The notes under the pieces: generated by a model
Told to the model about the DNA's origin: nothing
The model's input: only the letters and a program-made list of their open reading frames with translations
Database searches by the model: none
Part shown: positions 2,601 through 45,869 of the stretch, in pieces
Layout of the letters: each line of letters opens with the position of its first letter
Numbering within the stretch: the stretch's first letter is position 1
NCBI GenBank assembly: GCA_051294375.1
Contig: JBJCIZ010000029.1
Location: 1-46,478, forward strand
Source of the DNA: Paraspadella gotoi
Lineage: Eukaryota > Animalia > Chaetognatha
DNA length: 46,478 nucleotides
Direction: 5' to 3'
Translations under genes and position numbers: made by a program

Positions 2601-4246
2601 TCGTCTCTCTCTCTCCTCTCTCTTCTCCTCTCTCTTCTCCCTTCAATAATCACCCACTCACTGTCCTTGATCACATTCACGTCATCTCCTTTGTCTCTGA
2701 TCTTGTTTTTGTTTCGATCCGCTCCCGCGTTTCTGTTGTTGTTCTTCTTCGTCGTCGGATCCACGTCGAGCTCGAGTCCGTTTTTCATCGAATTCATGAA
2801 AAACGTCATGAACTTGTCCCAAGCCTGTTATTGCGCAAAATTGGCAAGTCCTAAAGTCATTTAAACTACTGCAATTGTAAGGGAAATTTATATTTGCTAA
2901 TTTGGTTAACTATAAGTATAACTGTTCGTCGTCATCTCAGTCATTGCTGAATGTTGAGGTCCCCAAGAACTGTTCTGAATTAGATTGTCGTCAATGAGCT
3001 CGAAATCGTCGAGAGAGTTTTGGAACCGCAACAATGATCGTCAGTCTATTTCTCATATTTTATCTACCGTATCAATAATACGTCAGGGTTTAATCGTCGT
3101 TGTCGTCGTCGTCGTCGTCGTCACCGACTTTGTCGCACCCTGAATGTGTTGGGCGTGGCCTTGTCCGCCATTTGCTCCGGGATGAACTCCCCGAGGAAGA
3201 CGGACTTGAATTCCATCAATTGCTGATGAAAATAAATAAAATAAATGATAATTAGTTAGTTAATAAGTTAATTGGTTGATATCGAATTAAAACATTCATT
3301 CATTCATTTATTTATTCATTCTACCCTGAACTAAACCTGAGGCGGGGTGTCGAACTGACGGTGGGCGAAACCGAGGCTTTGCGTCATCTGCTCTGCGATT
3401 CCCGGATGTTTGAGATTAGCGATGACGAGCGTGATCTCGCGGACGGTAGAGTAACTAACCCAAAAAATAGGGAAGTAAGGACTGAGTCAAAGTAGCAGCG
3501 CAGCGGTATCGTTTAAAATTAGTTTTAGGAGGAGAAAAATAATACAATTTTAACCTAAATTTGTGCAATAAAAAAGATAAGTTTTAAAAAAACCTGTGAG
3601 CTTTCATCTCCGGAGATTTCATGATGTCCTCAAAATCTTTATACTTTTTGAATTTTCTGAAAAACAAAAGGGAAAGCTTAAGGTGACTCAGTCGCTTACG
3701 TTTTCTTCTGGCGCCAAATTTTATCCGAATCCACGAGACCAAAACACGAGCAAAGGGAGGACGAATGAAAAACAAAACCAAACGTCGAAAAATAAGGAAA
3801 TGTATTTGAGGGAAAAATGAAAAACGTATCGAGGAAAGAAAGAAGAGAAAAAAAATATGAAAACGGTGAGCACAAAAGAAAGTCCCGTCAAGCAATGGTT
3901 TAAAAAAAGCCGCAGTTCTTCTCTCAAGGTGGTTTTCACAAAAACCGAAGCGACTCACTCAAAAGATTTCACGTGATGCGGCTGAGAAGTGAACAACTGA
4001 CGGTAGAGGATGAGTCCAGCCTCGCGCAGGCCGCCCGTCGATCGCGCCATCATGTCCCATGACTGCTGGACCTGCGGCGAAAGAGGTAAGGTCGCGTGAG
4101 AATTGACGAGGATGTGGATTTTATTTCACTCCTGCTCCTTTTCCTTCTAGTGAAGATTCCATTTATCCCTCCGTCAATGTACTATTAACTTTTCACGTGA
4201 GACTCACTTCGTTGATCTCCTCCTCCGTGAGAGCCGTGTCGCCCAT
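2558..4246 (-). CDS. Globin (3-over-3 fold), six coding exons: 4246-4208, 4071-3959, 3656-3594, 3454-3337, 3222-3139, 2824-2558; about 227 aa including a low-complexity tail
   Basis: Spliced translation: MGDTALTEEEINE|VQQSWDMMARSTGGLREAGLILYRQLFTSQPHHVKSFE|KFKKYKDFEDIMKSPEMKAHS|YSTVREITLVIANLKHPGIAEQMTQSLGFAHRQFDTPPQ|QLMEFKSVFLGEFIPEQMADKATPNTFR|AWDKFMTFFMNSMKNGL... Trp A12, Gly B6, Phe B14, Pro C2, Phe CD1, His E7, His F8 and the H-helix AWDKF are correctly spaced. All introns are GT-AG and phase-compatible. The start lies next to an N gap and the 3' end runs through a microsatellite, so both termini are uncertain. Confidence 0.92.
2563..2640. repeat. (CT)n/(AG)n microsatellite within the globin last exon
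   Basis: Imperfect CT run; it encodes RE repeats on the - strand. Confidence 0.9.
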
Positions 4247-5099: not shown

Positions 5100-5600
5100 T
5101 CTTCTCTATTTTAAAGCGGTCAATATTTTTTTAAAACATTTAGGAGTTTTCTATTGTCAAAATTAAAGTTCACAACTTTTAACGACTTGAAGATGATGAT
5201 ATCGATTTTTCAACGCTATTTTACACGTGTCTTGGTTCTTTGGCATACATTTATTTTTTTTTAGATCAAATGTTAGACTCGAAGACTCTTGAATCGTCTG
5301 AGTTCGGACTTTGTCACGAGGATTTATCGTTTCTGATATTCTCATCTTTCGTGCAAACGTCGGTCCTTTTAACAAAAGTTGTCATTTAGTCTCTAGACAT
5401 TAATTATCTTATTCAAGCTATGAATCACAAAGCCTTAGGCTGAGAAATAAACTTAGAGAAAAACAGAAAACCTAAAATCATGTCTTTGAAGCATCTTTTG
5501 ATGGGACTCGCCGGGCTGAAAGTTTTTCTCGAATATTCACGGGGGCGTTTTTGGAGGACGAACCTGCGGTTCCTCACCAAACGTATCAGGTGCGTTTTGT
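5100..5600 (+). repeat. Near-identical duplicate of 12662-13168, bounded by N gaps; includes an LTR-related segment from 5271
   Basis: The sequence matches 12662-13168 apart from small indels and has gaps on both sides. Confidence 0.85.
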
Positions 5601-9944: not shown

Positions 9945-10710
9945 CAGGCTTTGTAATTCTTGTTTGGTATTTGATTTAGTCCTAGATTCGGTTTTAGTGG
10001 CCCACAGCCACTGTCTATACTTATTAATGCCTCTGTTCGCATTCGATGCAGTCTTAGGTTAGAATTTTTGTGTCCACAGCCACGTCTATGACTTATTATG
10101 GGCACTGCTGTTCGCATTCGATGCATGTCTTAGGTTAGGTTTTTGTGCCAAGCACGTCTGCTCCTATTATGCTCTGTTCGCATTCGATGAGGTCTTAGGT
10201 AGGTTTTGTGCCCACAGCCACGTTTATCTTACTATGCCTTTGTTCCGCATTCGATGCTGTCTTAGAGTTAAGGTTTGTGCCCACAGCAACGTCTATCCTT
10301 ATTATGGGCCTTGTTCGCATTCGATTTCAGTCTTAGCGTTAGGTTTTGTGCCCCAGCAACTCTATCCTTATTATGCCTTTGTTCGCATAGTTGATTTCAG
10401 ATCTTAAGGTTAGGTTTTGTGCCACAGCAACGTCTACACTTATTATGCCTTGTTCGCATTCGATTCAGTCTTAGGTTAGGTTTTTTGTGTCCACAGCCTC
10501 GTCTACCTTATTATGCCTATTGTTCGCATTCGATTCCAAGTCTTAAGGTTAGGTTTTGTGTCCACAGCCCGTCCTATACCTTATTATACCTTTGTTCGCA
10601 TTCAATGCAGTTCTTTAAGGTTAGGTTTTTGTAGCCACAACATCCACGTCTATCCTTATTAGGCCTTTGTTCGCAATTCGATGCAGTCTTAGGTATCGGA
10701 TTTGTGGCGG
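9945..10710. repeat. Minisatellite, ~68-70 bp unit, about 10-11 copies
   Basis: The unit TCTTAGGTTAGGTTTTTGTGCCCACAGCCACGTCTATCCTTATTATGCCTTTGTTCGCATTCGATGCAG repeats head-to-tail with scattered indels and no unique spacers. Confidence 0.95.
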
Positions 10711-12657: not shown

Positions 12658-12830
12658 CAAATCTTCTCTATTAAAGCGGTCAATATTTTTTTAAAACATT
12701 TAGGAGTTTTCTATTGTCAAAATTAAAGTTCACAACTTTTAACGACTTGAAGATGATGATATCGATTTTTCAACGCTATTTTACACGTGTCTTGGTTCTT
12801 TGGCATACATTTATTTTTTTTAAGATCAAA

Positions 12831-13146
12831 TGTTAGACTCGAAGACTCTTGAATCGTCTGAGTTCGGACTTTGTCACGAGATTTATCGTTTCTGATATTC
12901 TCATCTTTCGTGCAAACGTCGGTCCTTTTAAACAAAAGTTGTCATTTAGTCTCTAGACATTAATTATCTTATTCAAGCTATGAATCACAAAGCCTTAGGC
13001 TGAGAAATAAACTTAGAGAAAAACAGATTTGCTTGAAACCTAAAATCATGTCTTTGAAGCATCTTTTGATGGGACTCGCCGGGCTGAAAGTTTTTCTCGA
13101 ATATTCACGGGGGCGTTTTTGGAGACGAACCTGCGGTTCCTCACCA
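12831..13146. mobile_element. Diverged solo-LTR-like copy related to 14134-14542
   Basis: It starts TGTTAGA and shares both terminal blocks (TCTGAGTTCG..GTCAC..GATTTATCGTTT; TCGAATATTC.CGGGGGCGTTTT) with 14134-14542. Confidence 0.6.
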
Positions 13147-13823
13147 AACGTATCAGGTGCGTTTGTTTCATTTGTGATAAAACTATACAAATGCCGTTCA
13201 GTATTTAGGATTCGCCACATGCTTTATTTTGGGAAGAAATAACTTTTTTAAACTCTTCTAAATTAACTTAACATTTATATTTTTGTTTATATGTTATGAT
13301 ATTGTATTTAAAATATTTTTGCATTTAAAATATTTAAAAAAAAGTAAAGCAATATGTTTCCCACCCAAATTTTATTTTCTATTATCATTTTTGATTCTAT
13401 ATCAAAAGCGAATGTCAGAAAAAGAATGATGGATGTCAAACTAGAGAAATTTACTTTACTATTTTACTTTTTTATTTTACTTTATTTACTAAAATTAATC
13501 ACTTTTTATCATTAGGAGTTTTGTAATATATAATTAATTTGTCCATTAGTGATAATAAATATTTATTAATTAGTGAAGCACAGTATAACATTGAAGCATT
13601 TAAATATTTATTAGATTTGAATCCGACAATATTATGAATGTGACAAGTCCGGGTGTCCTGTTCCTTTTTCTCAGCTCTTTTAAACTGAAAGTTTCTAAAA
13701 AATTTTTTTTGTCCGAGCCAATATTGAAATTCGCCTTTTTAATGTTTTTTTTTTTTGCTTTTTTCAGTTAATTCTTTAATATAATAATCTTTAATCAAGT
13801 TATTTATTTCAAAAAAAGATTTT

Positions 13824-30978: not shown

Positions 30979-31128
30979 CGATGCATTAAATTAATATTTT
31001 TATACGAAAATTATTTATTTATCGTCTGATTAAGTGTGCGAACGTTTTTATGAAACTCGATGTCTGTATATTTCCAACTTTTGGACTAATTAAGATAACT
31101 AAATAAATAATGTAAGTAATCTTGCAAG

Positions 31129-31471
31129 TATGGTGGACTGAAATCCAGAACCAGAGATTCTATGAGCGGTTTTTGGAAAAATGTTTTTGTTTCAAATATA
31201 TTAAGAATTAATGCCAAAAATTGACTAAAATAACCAAATTTTCTATGAAGGAATGAGAATGAAAATATCTTTTCATAGAATTGGAGTCTATGACTAAAAG
31301 TAATTCATGTCAAATTTCACCAAGGAACCGCCTTAACGTTTAGGCTGCAACTATTCAATTTATATTTGAATTGAGTGATCCTTGACCTTAGCCCGCCTGA
31401 CCCAAAGCTCAGAGACTGCTTATATTGAACGGTTCTGTCATTAATTCACAACCAATATTACTGTCTCTTCA
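31129..31471 (+). mobile_element. Variant of family A with the same termini but a different interior (no tRNA boxes)
   Basis: It starts TATGGTGGACTGAAATCCA and ends AAGCTCAGAGACTGCTTATATTGAACGGTTCTGTCATTAA...ACTGTCTCTTCA. Confidence 0.6.
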
Positions 31472-31835
31472 CAAATTTTAATTTTATTTAATAATGAAAT
31501 GAATATATACTTAATTACTTATTCATCTTATATGGGTGATTTTCTTTAATTTTTTTAACTGGAAATTTATACAAGAATCATTTTATATGAAATTGTACAG
31601 TTGATGAAACCTAACTATAATTACACAAGTGTACACAATTAAGTATTAGAAATAAATTGATTTCATTTATTAAAAAAAAATATTTAAACTAAAAGACACC
31701 ACATTAGCATTAATTACAAAAATCAACCTAAATTTATTGATGATATTTTAATAAATATGCATGTGTAGCAGTATTATTTCAGAATAAAAATGATTGAAAC
31801 AACTTTCACTTAAATTTCAAATTCTTCCCTTTTAG

Positions 31836-34800
31836 TTATTCGGCCAAGACGACATCCTTTGCTTCAAACCCCTTTTCTATAGAAAACATAAGAGAAAAAC
31901 GTACTTGCTTCCATGCATACTTTGAACCAGATAAGGTATCTGTCTTCTTAGGCAAAAATGACATGTACACTTCAAGACTACTTTCCGGACTGTGTTCCTC
32001 CGAGACTGAAAATAGTTTATGAACATCTACTTTGTCTACTGTACTGAGATAAATCCAGCCGCTAAATTTGCTGAGATTTGGGGGTTTGATGTAACCAGTA
32101 CATCGACTAAGGTTTTCCTTGTTCAAAGGCCTTCCGCGATAGGAGCGAATTAACCGTTTTATGCCACCGCTTCTTCCCAGCCATTCTTTAACTTTGGAAT
32201 TTCTTGAAAATTGAATCTTATGTTCAAAATCCCTAAGTTGTTGCATAAGTTGCAGTGATTTACTGTAACATTCAAAGTCGGTACCCTTTTTCTCTGAGCC
32301 AATACCTATAATAAAGTTTATAATAGCTGCATAAAAGATCGACAATGGCGATTTGCAATTTTTCACGCACTTTTCCAAAATATCTAAAACGTGCCTGGGA
32401 GAGTGATCTTGTTTAAAACTGTTTAACCGTATACCTGTCATCCACTCCCTTAAATCTATTGCCAAAAGGACAGGATCCTTTTCTTCAAGAACATTTTGTT
32501 CGTATAGCTTAATTACTATTTTCAAGTCATCGCCAGCTACATTCGTTAAGCTGCCAAAATGATCACTGTATTCTGGCTTGGCAGCCAGTCGATTTAGATA
32601 CTTCAGCTTGATAATTGCGGCTTTTAAACGTCTTGAATTTCTACTATTGCCCGTAAATCTTTCTACTGATAATTTTCCAAACAATAGTTGATACATTTTA
32701 TTTACAGAGAGTAATTTATCATTTGCATCTGAATCATCTTCTTCTACACATAAACTGGCCTTATAGATCAACTGATCAATAATTTCAGCTGAATCAATCA
32801 TTATCTCTTCTGCTTCCTTCATCCAAGTTTCTTTTTGTTGCGCAAGAGACAGAGGAAACTTTTGAATATTAAATATTTCTTTTTTTGTTAAGGTATTACA
32901 AAATTTAAGTCTCAAAAAGACTTCTGCTAAGTATGTAGTGTAATAGTGTTCATTCTCTGGCCTTGTATATTTATCTCGACTAAGAGCAAAATGTTCTATT
33001 CCCCTTTTCATTATTTCTAAGTATCTTTCCATCGATTGTTTATTATTAGGGTCCAATGATGAAGAACATCTTGTAACTAAAGCTTGATCCATAAATGCAT
33101 ACATATTATAAACTACTCTTGCAGAATTAAAATATTGGTTTCTCACATTTTTGTCACAATTTTTTTTATTTTTTGTACAATTTTCAATTCCTTTTTTTAT
33201 AAGTAAAATGGCTACTTCAAAGCAAGATTCTGCTTTTTTAAAATCATTGCATCCTAAATAATGAAAGCGTCCTAGGTGAGCATGAGCATGTGGATCTAAT
33301 CGTATTTTATCCCTAATTTTTTCCAAAACCCTCAGTTTATTCTCTTTTTTTTTAATTGACATTATAATGTTGGTAAAATGTTTTCGGGTTTCATCTTCTG
33401 CAGAATCTTGAGTGTCACGGTCTAAAAATATATTGGTAAGAATTTGTCTATCAGAGTCATTGACTTTATCACAATCCACAACTATGAAATCAATGAATTC
33501 TTCGGCCAATCTGCTGAGTTCACATGTAAATTCATTTCCACTATTTTCTTCTTTTTCTTTATTCAACTCAATTTGTTCTTTCAATGCTAAATCTAAAACT
33601 TCTTTTGCTATGAGGTTGTGAACCATTTTTATCTTTGTATCATCACTACTATTAGAAAATTTTACAAGATATTCAAGTAGTGTTTCAATTTTATCTTCAT
33701 GTAGCATTTCACCTTCTGGCACACCCATCACTTTAAAAAATCGTTGCAATTCAAGGTCTCTGCATCCACGGTGGGCATATACATCGATAAATGATAAAAT
33801 ATTTGCAAACATTTTTTTGTTCTAAATTTAAGGCATTATAAACATTGTAGACGAATCGTTTTAAACTTTTAAATTTATCTACAAACGCTGTAAGACTGAA
33901 TTCTATTAAATTCTGTTTGTTTTTTCAAGTTTTTTTAGCTCAGGCCTATTTTTAATGTCAAATTTTGCTAAGCTACTGATCATCAATTTGGCTTCTGCTT
34001 GTCTAATTTTCCAGAAAAATCAAACTGAACTATTCGACCAGGATTTTTAAAACGTTGAGCTGTTAGTTTAACATTGACATTTCTTCTAGTAAATAAGACA
34101 ACAGCAGAAAAAGGCGTCATAATCCTTGTAAAATCCTGAAGCAATGCATTATTAGGTTCATCTATGAACACAAGAACTGGTAATTCAGTTTTTCTGTGAA
34201 TGAATAACACTTCTTCATTTATTTGTTCCACTAGGTCTGAATTGATTTGGTCAACTATTTTGGTTTTTAGTTGAACACATGGGTATTCTTTGTGTATGCT
34301 CCATAACAACTGCATAGCAAGAGTGGTTCCACCTCCAGATGGACTATGTAAAATTTCTATTTTTCCGCAGCCAGCCTGATTTTCTAATAGATGAATTATT
34401 TCTTTTTTTATTGCTTCAAAACAACTTCTCTGAATAGCAATGGAATAATTATTTAACTTTTCCCATGTTTCCCAGTTAATACTTCCCCCCTTTAAAAACT
34501 CTTTTTCAACGTTTTCGATTTCTTCAAAATTCTCAAAATATTCATAAACTTTATTTAGGTATAATAGTTGTAATGTTTCTTCCATCCTAAGTACATCTAA
34601 CCGGTTAAGTCTGGGGTTATTTCCTTTCCCAGGATTTTTCATTGGTAGTAAATACCCTGTTGTAACGTTATTTTTACCACTTGTTTCTTTCCACATATTT
34701 GCAAAGACTTGGTTCATATTTAGTTGGTAAGAGCAAACTTCTTTCAGAAAAAGCTTATTTAAATATGGCAGTTCATCGTCAGAACATGCTACAAGTTTGA

Positions 34801-36586
34801 CATACTTCTCATCAGCAAAGTGTAGATTCAATGCGTCTAAAAATCTTTCTAAATGATTTTCTAGTGAGTTTGATTCTTTATTCCATAGCAGCAGTATTTT
34901 TATTACACTATTATATCCATTGTTAGAAAATTTTTCAATTTCTTTAGTTATGTTGCGAAAACATGCTACACTTTCTTTGTACCATTTTTTTGGATCTTTT
35001 TCAGATGGTTCAAATCGTGTACCCATTAAAAATACCCATTTTGGACACAACTCATCTATTTTTATCTGCTTATCCTTCAATGTTTTACTTTCATATAGTC
35101 TGTTTTTATACTTCTGTACTGAATGAAAAAGACCATGTGTTAATGACATTTCATCAAAGTCCAAAACTAACAACCAAGGTATTTTTGTTAATGCTTTTAA
35201 AAAACGTTGTTCTTCAATGTTCATTTTTCCAGCTATCAAAATGTAATGTCCATAATTACGTCCAGATTGAAATTGTTCCATAGATTTACAAAATAAAGGG
35301 TCATAAAAACTTTCCATTTTTTCTTTTTCTTCATCACTTAATGTTTCAGTCTGGTCTTCATTAAACCATTCCAATATGCGTGTGTAAGTCGCATCAGCAA
35401 TATCAATATTTTCACTAGAACTTCCAATTCTTGTCCATAAAGAATCTTTCTCCATGTTTACTCCATCATCAAAAAAAATATCTTGTTTTACCATTGCTGG
35501 GCTAACATTTGAATTTTTGCTATTCGCAATCTCAAATATTACGATTCGATGATTTAGACCCGAATTTGGATCGCAATACGAAGATTCATAAAACATGAAT
35601 TCTGGAATACTGCTTAAGAATTTGTCATTCATGAAAGGAAATTGTTTGACAGGATCATCAGATGATTTCAAACCTACCACCTGCGCTTTTCCCATCTTAT
35701 ATGAGGGTTTAATCCCAAATAGAATATAGGCTTTTTCTCGGTCAGGTGTATTCCAAAGACTTACAATGTCTTTGAATAAAATAGATTCACTTGGTGGAAT
35801 TGAATGAGCTATTACTGACTTGTTTGGAACTTTGCATGTAAGAATTTTCTCAATATCCTCTTGTTTCAACTTACCTGATTCAAAATTGAAAAATGGTTCA
35901 CACTCGTTTACATTAGTTTTGTCATTCGCTTTAGTACTTTTTAATGTTGGTTCGGAATCTTTACTCAGGGCTTGGTGTAACATTAGTTTAATTTCATTCA
36001 AACCATCTAGTACATCGCCAAAACCCGTCGCCATTTCTTCTTCATATTGAATCTTCAATGCTTCATAATATTTGCATGAGGCTTTTTTATCCAGTGGTCC
36101 ACGCCTCACTATTTCTACGTCGTATTCTCTTTTTGGATCCAAATAAATGATTGCTTTCTCAATTTTTATCCACATTTCGTCAAAACGATCGTCATCAAAT
36201 TCTGGAACTACTGCGTGGGCAAGTTCATTGCGGCAGGAGCGAAGTTCTTTTATGTGCTTGCTAAAATCCCCACTCTGCAATGCTTGAGAACAAAAATTAT
36301 CAATCAAATAGGTTAGTAAAGTTAAGTCCAAAGCTTCTTCAGTGAGTTCTCCTTTTAGAGGGAATAAGGTGAAAAACTGCTTTCGACTGAGTATCTTTTT
36401 CTTCCGAGAGTATTCACCCTGAACATTTTTTAAAATGTTTTCTTTTTTGGGCAATAACCAATCATTCAATGTGGCCGCGCCCTGGGCGATTCTCCACTTT
36501 CGAAGGCATTGTTGCAAAGACGCTGTTCCATGTTTCCAGAGTACAGTAATGAGTCTTAGAAAGTTAGTTTCGTCTTCCTCGGACAT
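31836..36586 (-). CDS. SAMD9-family STAND NTPase with N-terminal DZIP3-like HEPN domain (HEPN-AlbA/Schlafen-SIR2-like-STAND-TPR-OB), ~1580 aa, intronless; assembled as two ORFs because of frameshifts at 33812-34000
   Basis: HEPN: NFLRL..., LDLTLLTYLI, LRSCRNELAH. AlbA: KDIVSLWNT...YILFGIK...VVGL. SIR2-like: IPWLLVLDFD...GLF. SAMD9-type Walker A ILHSPSGGGTTLAMQLLW and Walker B LPVLVFIDE. TPR: HAHLGRFHY..NDFKKAESCFEVAI. OB C-terminus: VRFSLMFSIEKGFEAKDV (compare SAMD9 VSFYLGFSIGGPLAYDI). Confidence 0.9.
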
Positions 36587-36802
36587 TTTATTTAAGAGTT
36601 GTTCTTTTTTTTAAAAGGAAATCCGCGAGTTTGTTTCATGTCTTCCATTTTTTCATTAATATAACAACGAAGGAGGTAGGCATAAAATAAAATCGCCGCT
36701 GAAAACTTACCAAACGAGAATTCAGTGATTTCAGTGAATTCGAACGAACAACCGGTTCAATCCAGTTTGAAAAGACGAAGTCACTAAAAATGAGACGCCC
36801 TT

Positions 36803-38044
36803 AAAAAAAGTTTGAGCAAAAAATGTCGGATCTGCCCACGATCATTAGCGGTAATTAATTATTTAATTAATACAAACTATATAAACTAAAATAATAATTT
36901 AATTAATGAATTAATTAATTTGATCCGAAATGTTTGTGTTTAGGTCTTTTCGTCACTGACCACGACAAAAGCAACGACGACGATGATGGCGACGATGACA
37001 ATAATGATTTACTTGATTGATTGATTGATTAATTATATAATTAATAAATTTATGAACAAAATTGATTGATTGAATAATTAATTAATAGTTAACTAAATAA
37101 ATTAATTGATTGAATAATTAATTGACTGATTAATTAATTATTGATTAATTAATTGACTAATTGATTAATTAAATGATTAATTATTTTATTAATTAATACA
37201 TCTTGCATTTACATTTAATATAAAAAGAAAAAGAAGCATAATCAATTAGTGAAACAGGTTTTTTGTTTTTTCCATTTAAACTCATTTCCACTCAGACGAT
37301 TCCATCAATCAATTAAAGAATAATTAATTAATTCAAGTTAAATAATTAATTAGTCAATTAAATAATTAACTTGATCCGAAATATTTGTTTTGATTGATTA
37401 ATTGACTGAATAATTAATTGACTAATTGATTAATTAACTCATTAATTATTTGATTAATTTATACATCTTGCATTTACATTTAATATAAAAAGAAAAAGAA
37501 GCATAATCAATTAAAGAAACAGGTTTTTTGTTTTTTTCCATTTAAACTCATTTCCACTCAAAAAAATTCCATCGAAACTTGATTTCCAGCTTAATCACAC
37601 ACTTTCCTACCCACATACAAAATTTAAAGTCAATCGCCCTATCCACTCATAAGTAATTGGTGTTCAAATAGTGAAATATATTTTTTTGTTTTTTCCATTT
37701 AAACTCATTTCCACTCGCACAATTCCATGCTAAGGTGGGACGGACGGACAGACGGACAGATGGACAGACGGACGGACGGACGGACATCTTTTTTTTGCAT
37801 AATTTATCATAAGATAGTTTAATTAATTTGCAACAACAATTTATAATTAAAAGACGAACATGTTTTGGCTCTAATTCAAGCCTTCATCAGCGCCAAAATG
37901 TTTTACTATAATGCATAATTTATCATAATTCGATGTTATGACATGATATAAGTGTGTGCCCGACAAGATTGAGGGGGCGGACCAACGGACCGACAAAGTG
38001 AATTATAGAGTCGGGATCTGCTGAAAGCAGATCCCGTCTAAAAA
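36803..38044 (-). mobile_element. Helentron-associated non-autonomous element (DINE-1/HINE-like)
   Basis: Terminal hairpin CGGGATCTGC-TGAAA-GCAGATCCCG (38012-38036) has its arm repeated subterminally at the other end (GTCGGATCTGC, 36825). It also has a (GTCC/GTCT)n microsatellite at 37738-37786, AT-rich central tandem repeats, T-rich ends and no TSD. Confidence 0.8.
37853..37894 (-). ncRNA. Degenerate hammerhead fragment retro-inserted into the HINE
   Basis: - strand GGCG-CTGATGA-A-GGCTT..GAGCC-AAAACATGTT-CGTC (GAAA>AAAA). The insert is flanked by a 17-bp duplication TGCATAATTTATCATAA (37796-37812, 37912-37928). Confidence 0.7.
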
Positions 38045-39349
38045 CTCCCACTTTTTTTCACGCACTCGGCACTCGCTGAACGATATTTGATGACAGCGGC
38101 TGCGGCTGCGGCGGCGATGCTGCGCACGGGTTCTTTCAAAGATTAATTTTAAGGTCAACCTGATCTCGAAGGGACATCGAAGGAACTTTCTCGAACGTTA
38201 TATCTTATAGTTTCATGTGAATTAGTTCATAACATTTTATTAATGATTCCATTTTAAACGTTAGTNNNNNNNNNNNNNNNNNNNNNNNNNGTTTTTATTT
38301 TAATGAGAATCCGTTGTTTTGATGAGTGAAACGTTATTGGTTTGAGAAAAATGGGATGTGCAAAGCAATGGCAATAGGGATTTTTTTAAAAAAACGTGGT
38401 TTTTTGGAGCTAAAATGATTTAAAAAAATTGTTTTGAAAAGGGGAATGAAATTTAAAAAGAGCGGGCATGGAGGGAGAGAAGAGAGAAGAGGAGAGAGAG
38501 AGAGAGAGAGAGAGAGTACAGTTACTAAGTAATGCTCTAGGACATGGTGTAATTAAGATTAATTAATAAGATAAGGAATATGAAGATATTGAAGATTAAG
38601 ATAACTAAATAAAATAGTAAGTAATCTTGCAAGTATGTTGGGACTAAAATCCAGAACCAGAGATTCTAAGCGGGTTTTTGGAAAAATGTTTTTGTTTCAA
38701 ATATATTAAGAAATTAATGCCAAAAATTGACTAAAATAACCAAATTTTCTATGAAGGTAATGAGAATTTTTGAAAAATATTCTTTCATAGAATTGGAGTC
38801 TGTGACCTAAAAGTAATTCATGTCAAATTTCACAAGGAACCGCCTTAACTTTAGGCTGCAACTATTCAATTTATATTTGGAATTGAGTGATCCTTGACCT
38901 TAGCCCGCCTGACCCAAAGCTCAGAGACTGCTTATATTGAACGGTTCTGTCATTAATTCAACAACCAATATTACTGTCTCTTCACAAATTTTAATTTTAT
39001 TTAATAATGAATGAATATATACTTAATTACTTATTCATCTTATATGGGTGATTTTCTTTAATTTTTTTAACTGGAATTTATACAAGAATCATTTTATATG
39101 AAATTGTACAGTTGATGAAACCTAACTATAATTACACAAGTGTACACAATTAAGTATTAGAAATAAATTGATTTCATTTATTAAAAAAAATATTTAAACT
39201 AAAAAGACACCACATTAGCATTAATTACAAAAATCAACCTAAATTTATTGATGATATTTTAATAAATATGCATGTGTAGCAGTATTATTTCAGAATAAAA
39301 AATGATTGAAAAAACACTTTCACTTAAATTTCAAATTCTTCCCTTTTAG

Positions 39350-42300
39350 TTATTTGGCCAAGACGACATCCTTTGCTTCAAACCCGCCTTTCTATAGAAA
39401 ACATAAGAGAAAAACGTACTTGCTCCCATGCATACTTTGAACCAGATAAGGTATCTGTCTTCTTTTGGCAAAAATGACATGTACACTTCAAGACTACTTT
39501 CACGGACTGTGTTCCTCCGAGACTGAAAATAGTTTATGAACATCTACTTTGTCTACTGTACTGAGATAAATCCAGCCGCTAATTTTGCAGAGATTTGGGG
39601 GTTTGATGTAACCAGTACATCGACTGAGGTTTTCCTTGTTCAAAGGCCTTCCGCGATAGGAGCGAATTAACCGTTTTATGCCACCGCTTCTTCCCAGCCA
39701 TTCTTTACTTTGGAATTTCTTGAAAATTGAATCTTATGTTCAAAATCCCTAAGTTGTTGCATAAGTTGCAGTGGATTTAACTGTAACATTCAAAGTCGGT
39801 AACCCTTTTTCTCTGAGCCAATACCTATAAAAAGTTTATAATAGCTGCATAAAAGATCGACAATGCGATTTGCAATTTTTCACGCACTTTTTCCAAAATA
39901 TCTAAAACGTGCCTGGGAGAGTGGATCTTGTTTAAAACTGTTTAACCGTATACCTGTCATCCCACTCCCTTAAATCTATTGCCAAAGGACAGATCCTTTT
40001 CTTCAAGAACATTTTGTTCGTATAGCTTAATTACTATTTTCTAAGTCATCGCCAGCTACATTCGTTAAGCTGCCAAAAATGATCACTGTATTCTGGCTTG
40101 GCAGCCAGTCGATTTAGATACTTCAGCTTGATAATTGCGGCTTTTAAACTCTTGAATTTCTACTATTGCCCGTAAATCTTTCTACTGATATTTTCCAAAC
40201 AATAGTTGATACATTTTATTTACAGAGAGTAATTTATCATTTGCATCTGAATCATCTTCTTCTTTACACATAAACTGGCCTTATAGATCAACTGATCATA
40301 ATTTCAGCTGAATCAATCATTATCTCTTCTGCTTCTTCATCCAAGTTTCTTTTTGTTGCGCAAGAGACAGAGGAAAACTTTTGAATATTAATATTTCTTT
40401 TTTTGTTAAGGTATTACAAAATTTAAGTCTCAAAAAGACTTCTGCTAAGTATGTAGTGTAATAGTGTTCATTCTCTGGCCTTGAATATTTTATCTCGACT
40501 AAGAGCAAAATGTTCTATTCCCCTTTTCATTATTTCTAGTATCTTTCCATCGATTGTTTATTATTAGGGTCCAATGATGAAGAACATCTTGTAACTAAAG
40601 CTTGATCCATAAAATGCATACATATTATAAACTACTCTTGCAGAATTAAAATATTGGTTTCTCACATTTTTGTCACAATTTTTTTTATTTTTTGTACAAT
40701 TTTCAATTCCCTTTTTTTATAAGTAAAATGGCTTACTTCAAAGCAAGATTCTGCTTTTTTAAAATCATTGCATCCTAAAATAATGAAAGCGTCCTAGGTG
40801 AGCATGAGCATGTGGATCTAATCGTATTTTATCCCTAATTTTTTCCAAAACCCTCAGTTTATTCTCTTTTTTTTTAATTGACATTATAATATGTTGGTAA
40901 ATGTTTTTCGGGTTTCATCTTCTGCAGAATCTTTGAGTGTCACGGTCTAAAAATATATTGGTAAGAATTTGTCTATCAGAGTCATTGACTTTTATCACAA
41001 TCCACAACTATGAAATCAATGAATTCTTCGGCAATCTGCTGAGTTCACATGTAAATTCATTTCCAACTTTTTCCTTCTTTTTCTTTATTTCAATCAATTT
41101 GTTCTTTCAATGCTAAATCTAAAACTTCTTTTGCTATGAGGGTTGTGAACCATTTTTATCTTTGTATCATCACTACTATTAGAAAATTTTAAAGATATTT
41201 CAAGTAGTGTTTCAATTTTATCTTCATGTAGCATTTCACCTTCTGGCAACACCCATCACTTTAAAAAAATCGTTGCATTCAAGGTCTCTGCATCCACGGT
41301 GGCATATACATCGATAAATGATAATATTTGCAAACTTTTTTTGTTCTAAATTTAAGGCATTATAAACAATTGTTAGACGAATCGTTTTAAACTTTTAAAT
41401 TTATCTACAAACGCTGTAAGACTGAATTCTATTAAATTGCTGTTTGTTTTTTCAAGTTTTTTTAGCTCAGGCCTTTTTTTAATGTCAAATTTTGCTAAAG
41501 CTACTGATCATCAATTGTGCTTCTGCTCTGGTCTAATTTTCCCCAGACAAATCAAACTGAACTATTTCGACCAGGATTTTTAAAACGTTGAGCTGTTAGT
41601 TAAACATTGACATTTCTTCTAGTAAATAAGACAACAGCAGAAAAAGGCGTCATAATCCTTGTAAAATCCTGAAGCAATGCATTATTAGGTTATCTATGAA
41701 CACAAGAACTGGTAATTCAGTTTTTTGTGAATGAATAACACTTCTTCATTTATTTGTTCCACTAGGTCTGAATTGATTTGGTCAACTATTTTGGTTTTTA
41801 GTTGAACACATGGGTATTCTTTGTGTATGCTCCATAACAACTGCATAGCAAGAGTGTTCCACCTCCAGATGGACTATGTAAAAATTTCTATTTTTCCGCA
41901 GCCAGCCTGATTTTCTAATAGATGAATTATTTCTTTTTTTATTGCTTCAAAAACAACTTCTTCTGAATAGCAATGGAATAATTATTTAACTTTTCCCATG
42001 TTTCCCAGATTAATACTTTCCCCCTTTAAAAAACTCTTTTTCAATCGTTTTCGATTTCTTTCAAATTCTCCAAAATATTCATAAAACTTTATTTAGGTAT
42101 AATAGTTGTAATGTTTCTTCCATCCTAGTACATCTAACCGGTTAAGTCTGGGGTTATTTCCTTTCCCAGGATTTTTCATTGGTAGTAAATACCCTGTTGT
42201 AACGTTATTTTTACCACTTGTTTCTTTCCACATATTTGCAAAGACTTGGTTCATATTTTAGTTGGTTAAGATGCAAATTCTTCCAGACAAAGCTTATTTA

Positions 42301-44172
42301 AATATGGCAGTTCATCGTCAGAAACATGCTACAAAGTTTGACATACTTCTCATCAGCAAAGTGTAGATTCATGCGTCTAAAAATCTTTCTAATGATTTTC
42401 TAAGTGAGTTTGATTCTTTATTTCCATAGCGCAAGTATTTTTATTTACACTATTATATCCATTGTTAGAAAATTTTTTCAATTTCTTTAAGTTATGTTGC
42501 GAAACATGCTACACTTTCTTTTGTACCATTTTTTTGGATCTTTTTCAGATGGTTCAAATCGGTGTACCCATTAAAAATATCCATTTTGGGACACAACTTC
42601 ATCTATTTTTTATCTGCTTATTCCTTCAATGTTTTACTTTCATATAGTCCCTGGTTTTTATACTTCTGTACTGAATGGAAAAGACCATGTGTTCATGACA
42701 TTTTTTCATCAAAGTCCAAAAACTAACAACCAAGGTATTTTTGTTAATGCTTTTAAAAAACGGTTGTTCTCAATGTTCATTTTTCCAGCTATCAAAATGT
42801 AATGTCCATTAATTACGTCCAGATTGAAATTGTTCCATAGATTTACAAAATAAAGGGTCATAAAACTTCCATTTTTTTCTTTTTCTTCATCACTTAAATG
42901 TTTCAGTCTGGTCTTCATTAAACCATTCCAATATGCGTGTGTATTCGCAATCAAGCAATATCAATATTTTCCACTAGAAAACTTCCAATTCCTTGTCCAT
43001 AAGAATCTTTCTCCAATGTTTACTCCATCATCCAAAAAAAATATCTTGTTTTTTACCATTGCTGGCTAAACATTTGAATTTTTTGCTATTCGCATCTCAA
43101 AATATTACGAATTCGATGATTTAGACCCGAATTTGGATCGCAATACGAGATTTCATAAAACATGAATTCCTGGGAATACTGCTTAAGAATTTGTCATTCA
43201 TGAAAGGAAATTGTTTGACAGGATTCATCAGGATGATTTCAAACCTTACCACCTGCGCTTTTCCCATCTTATATGAGGGTTTAATCCCAAATAGAATATA
43301 GGCTTTTTCTCGGTCAGGTGTATTCCAAAGACTTACAATGTCTTTGAATAAAATAGATTCACTTGGTGGAATTGAATGAGCTATTACTGACTTGTTTGGA
43401 ACTTTGCATGTAAGAATTTTTCTCAATATTCCTCTTGTTTCAACTTACTGATTCAAAATTGGAAAAATGGTTCACACTCGTTTAATTAGTTTTGTCATTC
43501 GCTTTAGTACTTTTTAATGTTGGTTGGAATCTTTAACTCAGGGCTTGGTTGTAACATTAGTTTTAATTTCATTCACACCATCTAGTACATCGCCAAAACC
43601 CGTCGCCATTTCTTCTTCTATATTGAATCTTTCAAATGCTTCATAATATTTGCATGAGGCTTTTTTATCCATTGGTCCACGCCTCACTATTTCTACGTCG
43701 TATTCCTCTTTTTGGATCCAAATAATGATTGCTTTCTCTCAATTTTTATTCCACATTTTCGTCAAAACGATCGTCATCAAATTCTGGAAACTACTGCGTG
43801 GGCAAGTTCATTGCGGCAGGAGCGAAGTTTCTTTTATGTGCTTGCTAAAATCCCCACTCTGCAATGCTTGGAACAAAAATTATCAATCAAATAGGTTAGT
43901 AAAGTTAAGCCCAAATCTTCTTCAGTGAGTTCTCCTTTAGAGGGAATAAGGTGAAAAAACTGTCTTTCGCTGAGTATCTTTTTCTTCCGAGAGTATTCAC
44001 ACCTGAACATTTTTTTAAAAATGTTTTTCTTTTTGGGCAATAACCAATCATTCAAGGGTCCGCGCCCATGGGCGATTCTCCACTTTCGAAGGCATTGTTG
44101 CAAGCCGCAGTGTTCCATGTTTCCAGAGTACAATAATGAGTCTTAGAAAGTTAGTTCGTCTTCCTCGGACAT
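39350..44172 (-). pseudogene. Frameshifted second copy of the HEPN-SAMD9-like gene (artefact or pseudogene)
   Basis: ORF fragments are identical to parts of 31836-36586 (e.g. SRPENEHYYTTYLAEVFLRLKFCNTL, KDIVSLWNTPDREKAYILFGIKP), with very many indels. Confidence 0.8.
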
Positions 44173-44389
44173 TTTATTTAAGAGTGTTCTTTTTTTAAAA
44201 GGAAATCCGCGAGTTTGTTTCATGTCTTCCATTTTTTCATTAATATAACAAACGAAGGAGGTAGGCATAAAATAAAATCGCCGCTGAAAACTTACCAAAC
44301 GAGAATTTCAGTGATTTCAGTGAATTCGAACGAAACAAACCGGTTCAATCCAGTTTGAAAAGCGAAGTCACTAAAAATGAGACGCCCTT

Positions 44390-45613
44390 AAAAAAAGTTT
44401 GAGAAAAAATGTCGGATCTGCCCACGATCATTAGCGGTAATTAATTATTTAATTAATACAAACTATAAACTAAATATAATATTTATTAATGAATTAATTA
44501 ATTTGATCGAAATGTTTTGTTTATAGGTCTTTTCGTCACTGACACGACAAAGCACGACAACGATGATGGCGACGATGTACAATAATGATTTACTTGATTG
44601 ATTGATTGATTAATTTATAATTAATAAATTTATGAACAAAATTGATTGATTGAATAATTTAATTAATAGTTAACTAATAAATTATTGATTGAATAATTAA
44701 TGATGATTAATTAATTATGATTAATTAATTGACTAATTGATTAAATTAAATAATTATTATTTTATTAATTAATACATCTTGCATTACATTAATATAAAAA
44801 GAAAAAGAAGCATAATCAATTAGTGAAAAAGGTTTTTTTGTTTTTTCCATTTAAACTCATTTCCACTCAGACGTTTCCATCAATCAATTAAAGAATAATT
44901 AATTAATTCAAGTTTAAATAATTAATTAGTCAATAAATAATTAACTTGATCCGGAAATATTTGTTTTGATTGATTAATTGAACTGAATAATTAATTGACT
45001 AATTGATTAATTAACTCATTAATTTTTGATTATTTACATCTTGCATTTAATTTATATAATAGAAAAAAGTGCATTAATCAATTAAAGAAACAGGTTTTTT
45101 GTTTTTTTCCATTTAAACTCATTCCACTCAAAAAATTCCATCGAAACTTGATTTCCAGCTTAATCGACACTTTCTACCACACATACAAATTTAAAGTCAA
45201 TCGCCCTATCCTCATAAGTAATTGGTGTTCAAATAGTGAAATATATTTTTTTGTTTTTCCATTTAACTCATTTCCACTGCCACAATTCATGCTAAGGTGG
45301 GACAAGACGGCAGGCAGACGCGACGCCGTATGGACAGACGGACGGACGACGGAACTTTTTTTTTTGCATTAATTTATCATAAGATATTTATTAATTTGCA
45401 ACAACAATTTATAATTAAAAGACGAACATGTTCTTTGGCTTTATTCAAGCCTTCATCAGCGCCAAATGTTTTACATATAATGCATTAATTTATCATAATT
45501 CGTGTTATGACATGATATAAGTGTGTGCCGACAAGATTTGAGGGTGGGAGCGCAACGGACCGCAAAGTGAATTATAGAGTTCGGGATCTGCTGAAAGCAG
45601 ACCGCGTCTAAAA
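44390..45613 (-). mobile_element. HINE-like element, duplicate of 36803-38044
   Basis: Same termini, microsatellite and nested hammerhead fragment. Confidence 0.75.
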
Positions 45614-45869
45614 CCTTCCCACTTTTTTTCACGCACTCCGGCACTCGCTGAACGAATTGATGACAGCGGCTGCGGCTTGCGGCGCGGCGATGCTGCGCAC
45701 GGGTTTCTTTCCAAGATTAATTTTAAGGTCAACCTGATCGTCGAAGGGACATCGAAGAACTTCTCGACGTTATATGCTTTATAGTTTCTGTGAATTAGTT
45801 CATAACAATTTTATTAATGATTCATTTTTTAAAACTTAGTGGTCTTTTGTTTTCGTTTAATTTTAATAG

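Follow-up and report, generated by a model that had tools for sequence, protein, structure and literature searches.

The locus studied here raises the question of which domain would act as the effector in an animal SAMD9-family protein that begins with a HEPN domain. It lies in 46,478 nucleotides of Paraspadella gotoi DNA (NCBI GenBank assembly GCA_051294375.1, contig JBJCIZ010000029.1), hereafter the window, in which the gene runs on the minus strand from an ATG at 36586 to a stop at 31836. It appears there as two long open reading frames (ORFs) in different frames, ORF1 (36586-33983, 867 residues from the ATG) and ORF2 (33821-31836, 661 residues). The results showed that this is a real SAMD9-family gene, whose architecture was absent from the relatives examined and the papers searched and which joins known parts in a known design. 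With moderate confidence, we propose from its residue patterns and by analogy with characterised proteins that the gene has undergone an effector swap, in which a putative HEPN RNase sits on an assembly-activated SAMD9 core and the AlbA_2 domain has degenerated. The positions of all features are collected in Table 1.

Both halves of the protein were found to fold like human SAMD9. In a phmmer search of the PDB, human SAMD9 was the sole match of ORF1 (E 8e-17), and residues 427-867 aligned with the human SAMD9 fold over 414 residues (Z 19.0, root-mean-square deviation (rmsd) 4.6). ORF2 alone had no sequence match in the PDB, and its likeness to SAMD9 comes from the fold: its seven best Foldseek matches were human SAMD9 chains (best E 3e-10, TMq 0.51). 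The AlphaFold models had a mean predicted local distance difference test score (pLDDT) of 84.6 for ORF1 and 86.1 for ORF2. The Walker A motif has GGT in place of GKT/S and an upstream histidine (HSPSGGGTT, residues 747-755). In human SAMD9, residues H737, T744, D799/D800, R837 and H985 hold ATP and regulate the protein (PMC13600222), and they are matched in the gene by H747, T754, D809/E810, R835 and ORF2 H68. A change of the winged-helix histidine is activating in human SAMD9. The core order that marks the SAMD9 family, AlbA_2, SIR2-like, P-loop NTPase, TPR and OB, was complete.

The N-terminus carried a HEPN domain of the DZIP3 type. Pfam HEPN_DZIP3 (PF18738) matched residues 53-168 with E 4.5e-12 and 46.4 bits, against a cut-off of 27, and Pfam found no N-terminal SAM domain in ORF1. 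In tested HEPN RNases, the arginine, the polar residue that follows it and the histidine are the catalytic determinants (PMC3710099); this Rx4-6H arrangement was found as R119, N120 and H124, and RNELAH falls in the motif column of the HEPN_DZIP3 alignment. A bare Rx4H is weak by itself: when residues 1-190 were shuffled 20,000 times, it arose in 16% of cases and RNx3H in 0.5%. The HEPN region of the ORF1 model had a pLDDT mostly above 90, and the linker fell below 50 at 189-196 and 209-230. No solved HEPN was listed among the fold matches of ORF1, in lists that were filled by other domains and barely sampled residues 1-230, so the HEPN assignment rests on sequence. The original prediction, made from the DNA letters, had proposed the ordered SAMD9 motifs with a GGGTT Walker A, a DZIP3-type HEPN with an intact RNELAH, and a sensor-switch-effector layout; all three were borne out by these results, the layout being that of a SAMD9-family core with an N-terminal HEPN.

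The AlbA_2 domain (residues 231-416) kept the fold of the SAMD9 tRNase, aligning with structures 9o0d and 7ksp at Z 10.0 and 9.9 (rmsd 3.8-3.9, 165-171 residues). In human SAMD9 this tRNase is the effector, and E184, E196, E218 and D241 are each essential, single changes abolishing cleavage (PMC10246899). The Avs9 site comprises E14, D19, D45 and E65, and mutation of D45 abolishes toxicity (PMC12680541). Only one of the four acids, D273, was kept in the gene, being the equivalent of SAMD9 E218 and Avs9 D45. Because no acidic residue occurs in 247-266 or 291-309, equivalents of SAMD9 E184, E196 and D241 or of Avs9 E14, D19 and E65 are missing whatever the local register. By our own mapping, the tRNA-binding basic residues K198, K214 and R221 of SAMD9 (PMC8795524) are also replaced; profile comparisons gave no alignment across the AlbA region. 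That AlbA_2 still cuts tRNA through a rearranged site, with HEPN as a second effector, seems very unlikely to us. The fold is well predicted (pLDDT ~85-95), D273 is invariant, and E267, D282 and E284 lie nearby in the sequence, yet human SAMD9 needs all four acids, and the gene is without three of them and without the basic residues.

AlbA_2 retains one catalytic acid of four, and the HEPN motif and the ATP-switch residues are intact, which makes an effector swap the likely change. The original prediction had instead placed the exchange at the SAM domain, a framing that needs correction: the sampled members of the clade carry CARD, Death or LOTUS-like N-termini, and the effector that is degenerate here is the AlbA_2 tRNase. 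By analogy with human SAMD9, the resting protein would be closed around ATP. A trigger, probably derived from infection, would open it and let molecules assemble, upon which the flexibly tethered HEPN domains could pair into a composite active site; the paired HEPN would then cut RNA and translation would stop, with AlbA_2 remaining as a scaffold or an RNA-binding relic. HEPN domains form composite active sites on dimerising (PMC13017515), and clustering of N-terminal nuclease domains has been proposed for the activation of human SAMD9 (PMC13600222).

We then compared the gene with its relatives. A search of 1.84 billion representatives gave 426 matches, and 150 of these were examined. The SIR2-STAND core was present in 142, of which 88 had AlbA, two had a DZIP3-type HEPN and none had both. 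The two were Actinia XP_031548674.1 (P0142; Pfam E 2.5e-6) and Sanderia EP00794 P004419 (P0134), the latter with a Pfam E of 0.089 and clear with a home-made profile that included the Sanderia protein itself. Both are without AlbA and have K-D instead of R-N. A bacterial group with a DUF4145-like HEPN, P0150 (E 2.2e-5) and P0131, was likewise without AlbA, and Bacteroidetes locus L002 had the same motif. That HEPN occurs without AlbA both in the cnidarian pair and in these bacteria argues for an effector swap. The closest HEPNs (30-37% identity) belonged to six short proteins on 1-1.4 kb contigs, and the short relatives P0073 and P0128 deviate from R-N-x3-H. Word-based homologue searches with ORF1 returned nothing, and those with the HEPN alignment returned 10 proteins of HEPN-NACHT/WD40 type, none with a SAMD9 core. 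No relative was found in metagenome contigs, PADLOC had no match for ORF1 or ORF2, and the ESM Atlas gave leads only (<0.9), a mollusc HEPN_DZIP3/nSTAND3 cluster scoring 0.77 and 0.87.

In 62 full-length relatives, Pfam identified CARD, Death, SAM, Pyrin and LOTUS-like N-termini. LOTUS/OST-HTH-like N-termini were seen in many invertebrate SAMD9-like proteins, among them P0016, P0039, P0009, P0011 and P0030; Pfam gave E 8e-5 in P0039 and WH_Egal E 5e-4 in P0016, and a five-protein profile matched 34 of 151 proteins. LOTUS did not appear in the available supplements of Mekhedov 2017 (PMC5445408). In P0041, a SAMD9-like protein of the invertebrate clade, residues 28-41 matched RHIM weakly (E 0.004).

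A core tree of 43 rows, from SIR2 to OB, was built with a quick LG+G4 model that is open to long-branch pull. It placed the gene in a clade (SH-aLRT 100) whose 23 rows include molluscs, Lingula XP_013415988.1 and the tunicate Clavelina, so that the core grouped with published SAMD9-family members, as the original prediction had expected. The branch of the gene is very long (1.83 changes per site in the core, 0.97 in HEPN), and its place within the clade is unsure. On the core, the approximately unbiased (AU) test rejected placing the gene with the HEPN-bearing cnidarian clade (p 0.005) or with vertebrate-type rows (p 0.016), and a grouping of HEPN alone with the cnidarian pair was not rejected (p 0.056). 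Independent gains of HEPN in this animal and in cnidarians are therefore favoured by these sequence comparisons, short of proof. A FastTree of the SIR2-STAND part had set the gene beside vertebrate-type rows (support 0.95); addition of the C-terminal half moved it to the invertebrate clade, and because of this move and the rejection of that grouping we attribute the first placement to long-branch attraction.

To compare the AlbA site across relatives, 91 rows were aligned; the gene's own row was set aside, as were 3 of vertebrate type and 5 that were truncated or misaligned. Counted on the bacterial register, and with rows typed by their place in the tree, by length and, in a minority, by name, the E-D-K-D set was complete in 44 of 44 bacterial-type rows and in 0 of 38 invertebrate-type rows. 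The latter kept the first acid in 15, the second in 1 and the third in all 38. The closest relative of the gene's AlbA was P0079 (51% identity), an ENA record of 103 residues that has likewise lost the first two acids and is too short to display whether HEPN is present. The AlbA_2 of the invertebrate clade aligned closer to bacterial Avs9-type AlbA (shared D-I-V-S-M-W-N-T-P block) than to vertebrate SAMD9, which bears on a published claim of convergence. The AlbA of the gene likewise gave a cleaner alignment with the Avs9 type than with the vertebrate one.

Several points weigh against an effector swap. To our knowledge, no DZIP3-type HEPN is known to cleave RNA, and the HEPN motif of the gene is known from one species only. 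The register of the acid count matters, since MAFFT set the vertebrate HEFK 7 columns later, and at the shifted columns an acid is present in some invertebrate rows and not in the gene. As D273 is kept here and its counterpart in every invertebrate-type row, AlbA_2 may not be dead. Degeneration of AlbA is clade-wide and predates the HEPN fusion, and it is therefore no proof that HEPN took over. Finally, the K-D of the cnidarian proteins, whose HEPNs may be inactive to judge from this change, means that HEPN can occupy the SAMD9 chassis without a canonical site.

This last point leads to another explanation, that HEPN serves dimerisation in a non-catalytic or regulatory role and fills the slot otherwise held by SAM, CARD, Death or LOTUS-like domains, output coming from signalling or from a partner protein. 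We consider it unlikely. Adaptor domains do fill the same slot in relatives (PMC5445408), and the deviating motifs of the cnidarian proteins, P0073 and P0128 would suit such a role; however, the gene keeps the canonical motif on a very long branch, where drift of an unused site would be expected. A wider version of the effector swap, which we put forward tentatively and would rather doubt than assert, is that the SAMD9/Avs chassis exchanged AlbA_2 for HEPN several times independently, in bacteria, cnidarians and this animal. The gene would then be an intermediate with an active HEPN before a dead AlbA_2 and the first animal SAMD9 to kill translation with HEPN, and most invertebrate SAMD9-like proteins of the clade would be pseudo-nucleases whose signalling runs through the N-terminal domain.

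Comparison with known systems places the gene among established designs. It shares with human SAMD9/SAMD9L (PDB 9zjr, 7ksp) the order of AlbA_2, SIR2-like, STAND (histidine and GGT Walker A), TPR and OB and the ATP-switch residues, but is without SAM, begins with HEPN, has lost most AlbA_2 acids and is only ~20% identical. Invertebrate SAMD9-like proteins (Mekhedov, Makarova, Koonin 2017; Lingula XP_013415988.1) fall in the same clade and have the same AlbA subtype, whereas the sampled clade members have CARD, Death or LOTUS-like N-termini where the gene has HEPN. The cnidarian proteins resemble the gene in a DZIP3-type HEPN that precedes the core from SIR2-like and STAND onwards, and differ in having no AlbA_2, in K-D for R-N and in their separate clade. 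Bacterial HEPN-STAND-TPR-S1/OB proteins, Avs5 and Avs9 use the same chassis with an N-terminal effector; unlike the gene, Avs9 has an active AlbA_2, Avs5 has SIR2, and the bacterial HEPN, with no AlbA next to it, is of a type other than DZIP3. The HEPN_DZIP3-NACHT receptors of bivalves and cnidarians (PMC9646362; Xenia) set the same HEPN family, with Rx4H and N after R, before a STAND NTPase, which in them is NACHT with LRR, TPR or WD40 and in the gene is the SAMD9 core.

The published record covers much of this ground. The lack of SAM in invertebrate SAMD9 members has been reported (PMC5445408), and the additions described in the family are SAM, CARD, Death, Pyrin, FIIND, kinase and glycosyltransferase (Mekhedov 2017, PMC5445408); HEPN is not in the available text or supplements of that study, nor is it mentioned in the available main text of Legrand 2025. 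In animals, DZIP3-type HEPN is fused to NACHT, TPR, CARD and Death, and bacteria have HEPN-STAND-TPR-S1 (Anantharaman 2013, PMC3710099); we infer that these bacterial proteins belong to the same family as P0150. In the pearl oyster, HEPN-NACHT genes number more than 50 (PMC9646362). A survey of Avs systems ties the Avs5 sensor to SAMD9 and, in its available parts, names no HEPN-SAMD9 (10.64898/2026.01.04.697583). No description of an animal HEPN-SAMD9 was found in the literature searched, which left most subscription papers outside its coverage, and no paper in that search had SAMD9 together with HEPN_DZIP3. Architectures such as Actinia XP_031548674.1 are already public in database records.

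If an effector swap is correct, the animal SAMD9 switch would be modular in its effector, like bacterial Avs, and not bound to the AlbA_2 tRNase. The gene offers a natural single-chain test case of whether the abundant DZIP3-type HEPNs of invertebrate immune receptors are assembly-activated RNases, and the AlbA census points to a large invertebrate clade seemingly without the AlbA_2 catalytic set. The surprise is limited, because both the components and the overall layout were known already.

The integrity of the gene was assessed with short-read contigs from 4 runs (X1, X2, X5, X6) of the 9, among 11 runs in all, that cover the stretch. X1 and X2 come from one study and X5 and X6 apparently from one data set, which leaves about two independent sources, and the best-covering run may be the assembly's own sample. 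Of the original claim of one intronless unit of ~1580 codons, the ordered motifs, the absence of an intron and the length stood (4752 nucleotides when joined, or 1583 codons plus stop); the window itself has two ORFs, separated by ~160 bases that require three frame changes. Contigs of all four runs spanned this break; across it they show 3 gaps and exceed the window by one letter (contig/window letters 2452/2451 in X1, 2456/2455 in X2, 1183/1182 in X5 and X6). The net gain of one base therefore puts ORF1 and ORF2 back in one frame. From this net gain, rather than from exact gap places, we infer an open frame through the 160-base break, and the break in the window is most likely an assembly error. 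Between 33713 and 36163, run X1 differed from the window at four places, all within or beside the break, and its contig over 36138-36830, which covers the HEPN motif, had no differences. An intron at 33822-33982 was rejected, because the pieces of this stretch read like the matching coding part of relatives (e.g. P0001). A chimeric HEPN join was also rejected: in two runs, contigs read without a break from the last HEPN helix (residue ~141 onwards) into AlbA, and they overlap the next contig, which bears the HEPN motif. A GTAAGT donor ~125 bases 5' of the ATG (window 36604-36711, minus strand) suggests a short intron in the 5' untranslated region.

The least probable of the readings weighed here is that we are dealing with a pseudogene, or with a recent fusion that is silent, and that a second copy in the window is a real decayed duplicate. 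It draws on the three frame changes and on that second, broken copy, which is 94.9% identical to the first with 234 gap openings. Against it stand the extra base in the short reads, the 867 and 661 codons free of stops at ~32% GC, and the intact switch residues. When the coding parts of the two copies are compared, 124 of the 138 gaps are one base long; a 25-N gap lies 305 bases before the start of the second copy; and over long stretches of the first copy only one contig gives cover, without another variant at 90-99%. A noisy long read is the likely source of the second copy, which would then be a false duplication; less probably, it is a real identical duplicate.

Table 1. Positions in the window of the HEPN-SAMD9-like gene, its domains and its second copy.
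Feature	Position	Strand	Basis
Whole intronless gene, ~1583 residues with the frame break read through	31836..36586	minus	ORFs and short-read contigs
HEPN domain, DZIP3/hRUL138 type, residues ~1-160, all-helical in the model	36107..36586	minus	Pfam PF18738, model, alignment
RNELAH, Rx4H motif (R119, N120, H124), residues 119-124	36215..36232	minus	Sequence, HEPN alignment
Two predicted helices (H167-187, H194-210; possible coiled coil) and flexible linker, residues ~161-230	35897..36106	minus	Model
AlbA_2 / Schlafen-like domain, residues 231-416, catalytic acids mostly lost, D273 kept	35339..35896	minus	Fold alignment, residue census
SIR2-like domain, residues 425-640, SAMD9-type LDFD motif	34667..35314	minus	ThsA 6lhx Z 13.2, rmsd 3.5, 192 residues; SAMD9 alignment
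STAND domain: H747, GGT Walker A (752-754), Walker B D809/E810, sensor-1 R835	34013..34609	minus	Alignment to human SAMD9
Frame-break stretch: three frame changes, several substitutions against short reads, likely assembly errors	33822..34016	minus	ORF and short-read comparison
Winged-helix domain (WHD) and helical domains of the STAND module, conserved WHD histidine (ORF2 H68)	33417..33809	minus	Alignment, model
TPR-like helical region, putative sensor	32217..33374	minus	ORF2 model, predicted template modelling score (pTM) 0.88; Foldseek SAMD9
C-terminal beta-barrel at the place of the SAMD9 OB fold	31839..32204	minus	Model strands, alignment with relatives
Second, indel-riddled copy of 31089-38265, gene part 39350-44172	38595..45840	minus	Self-comparison

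Other features were observed elsewhere in the window. A multi-exon gene on the minus strand at 2650-4245 looked globin-like by eye, and one of its exons gave weak haemoglobin-like PDB matches (E 0.7-1). Exons at 244-1000, also on the minus strand, encode several hydrophobic helices that resembled a seven-helix receptor by eye, and the pieces were without a Pfam match. A 71-base tandem array of ~10 copies was found at 9978-10706, and a 500-base repeat (97%) occurred at 5100-5597 and 12662-13164, beside N gaps.

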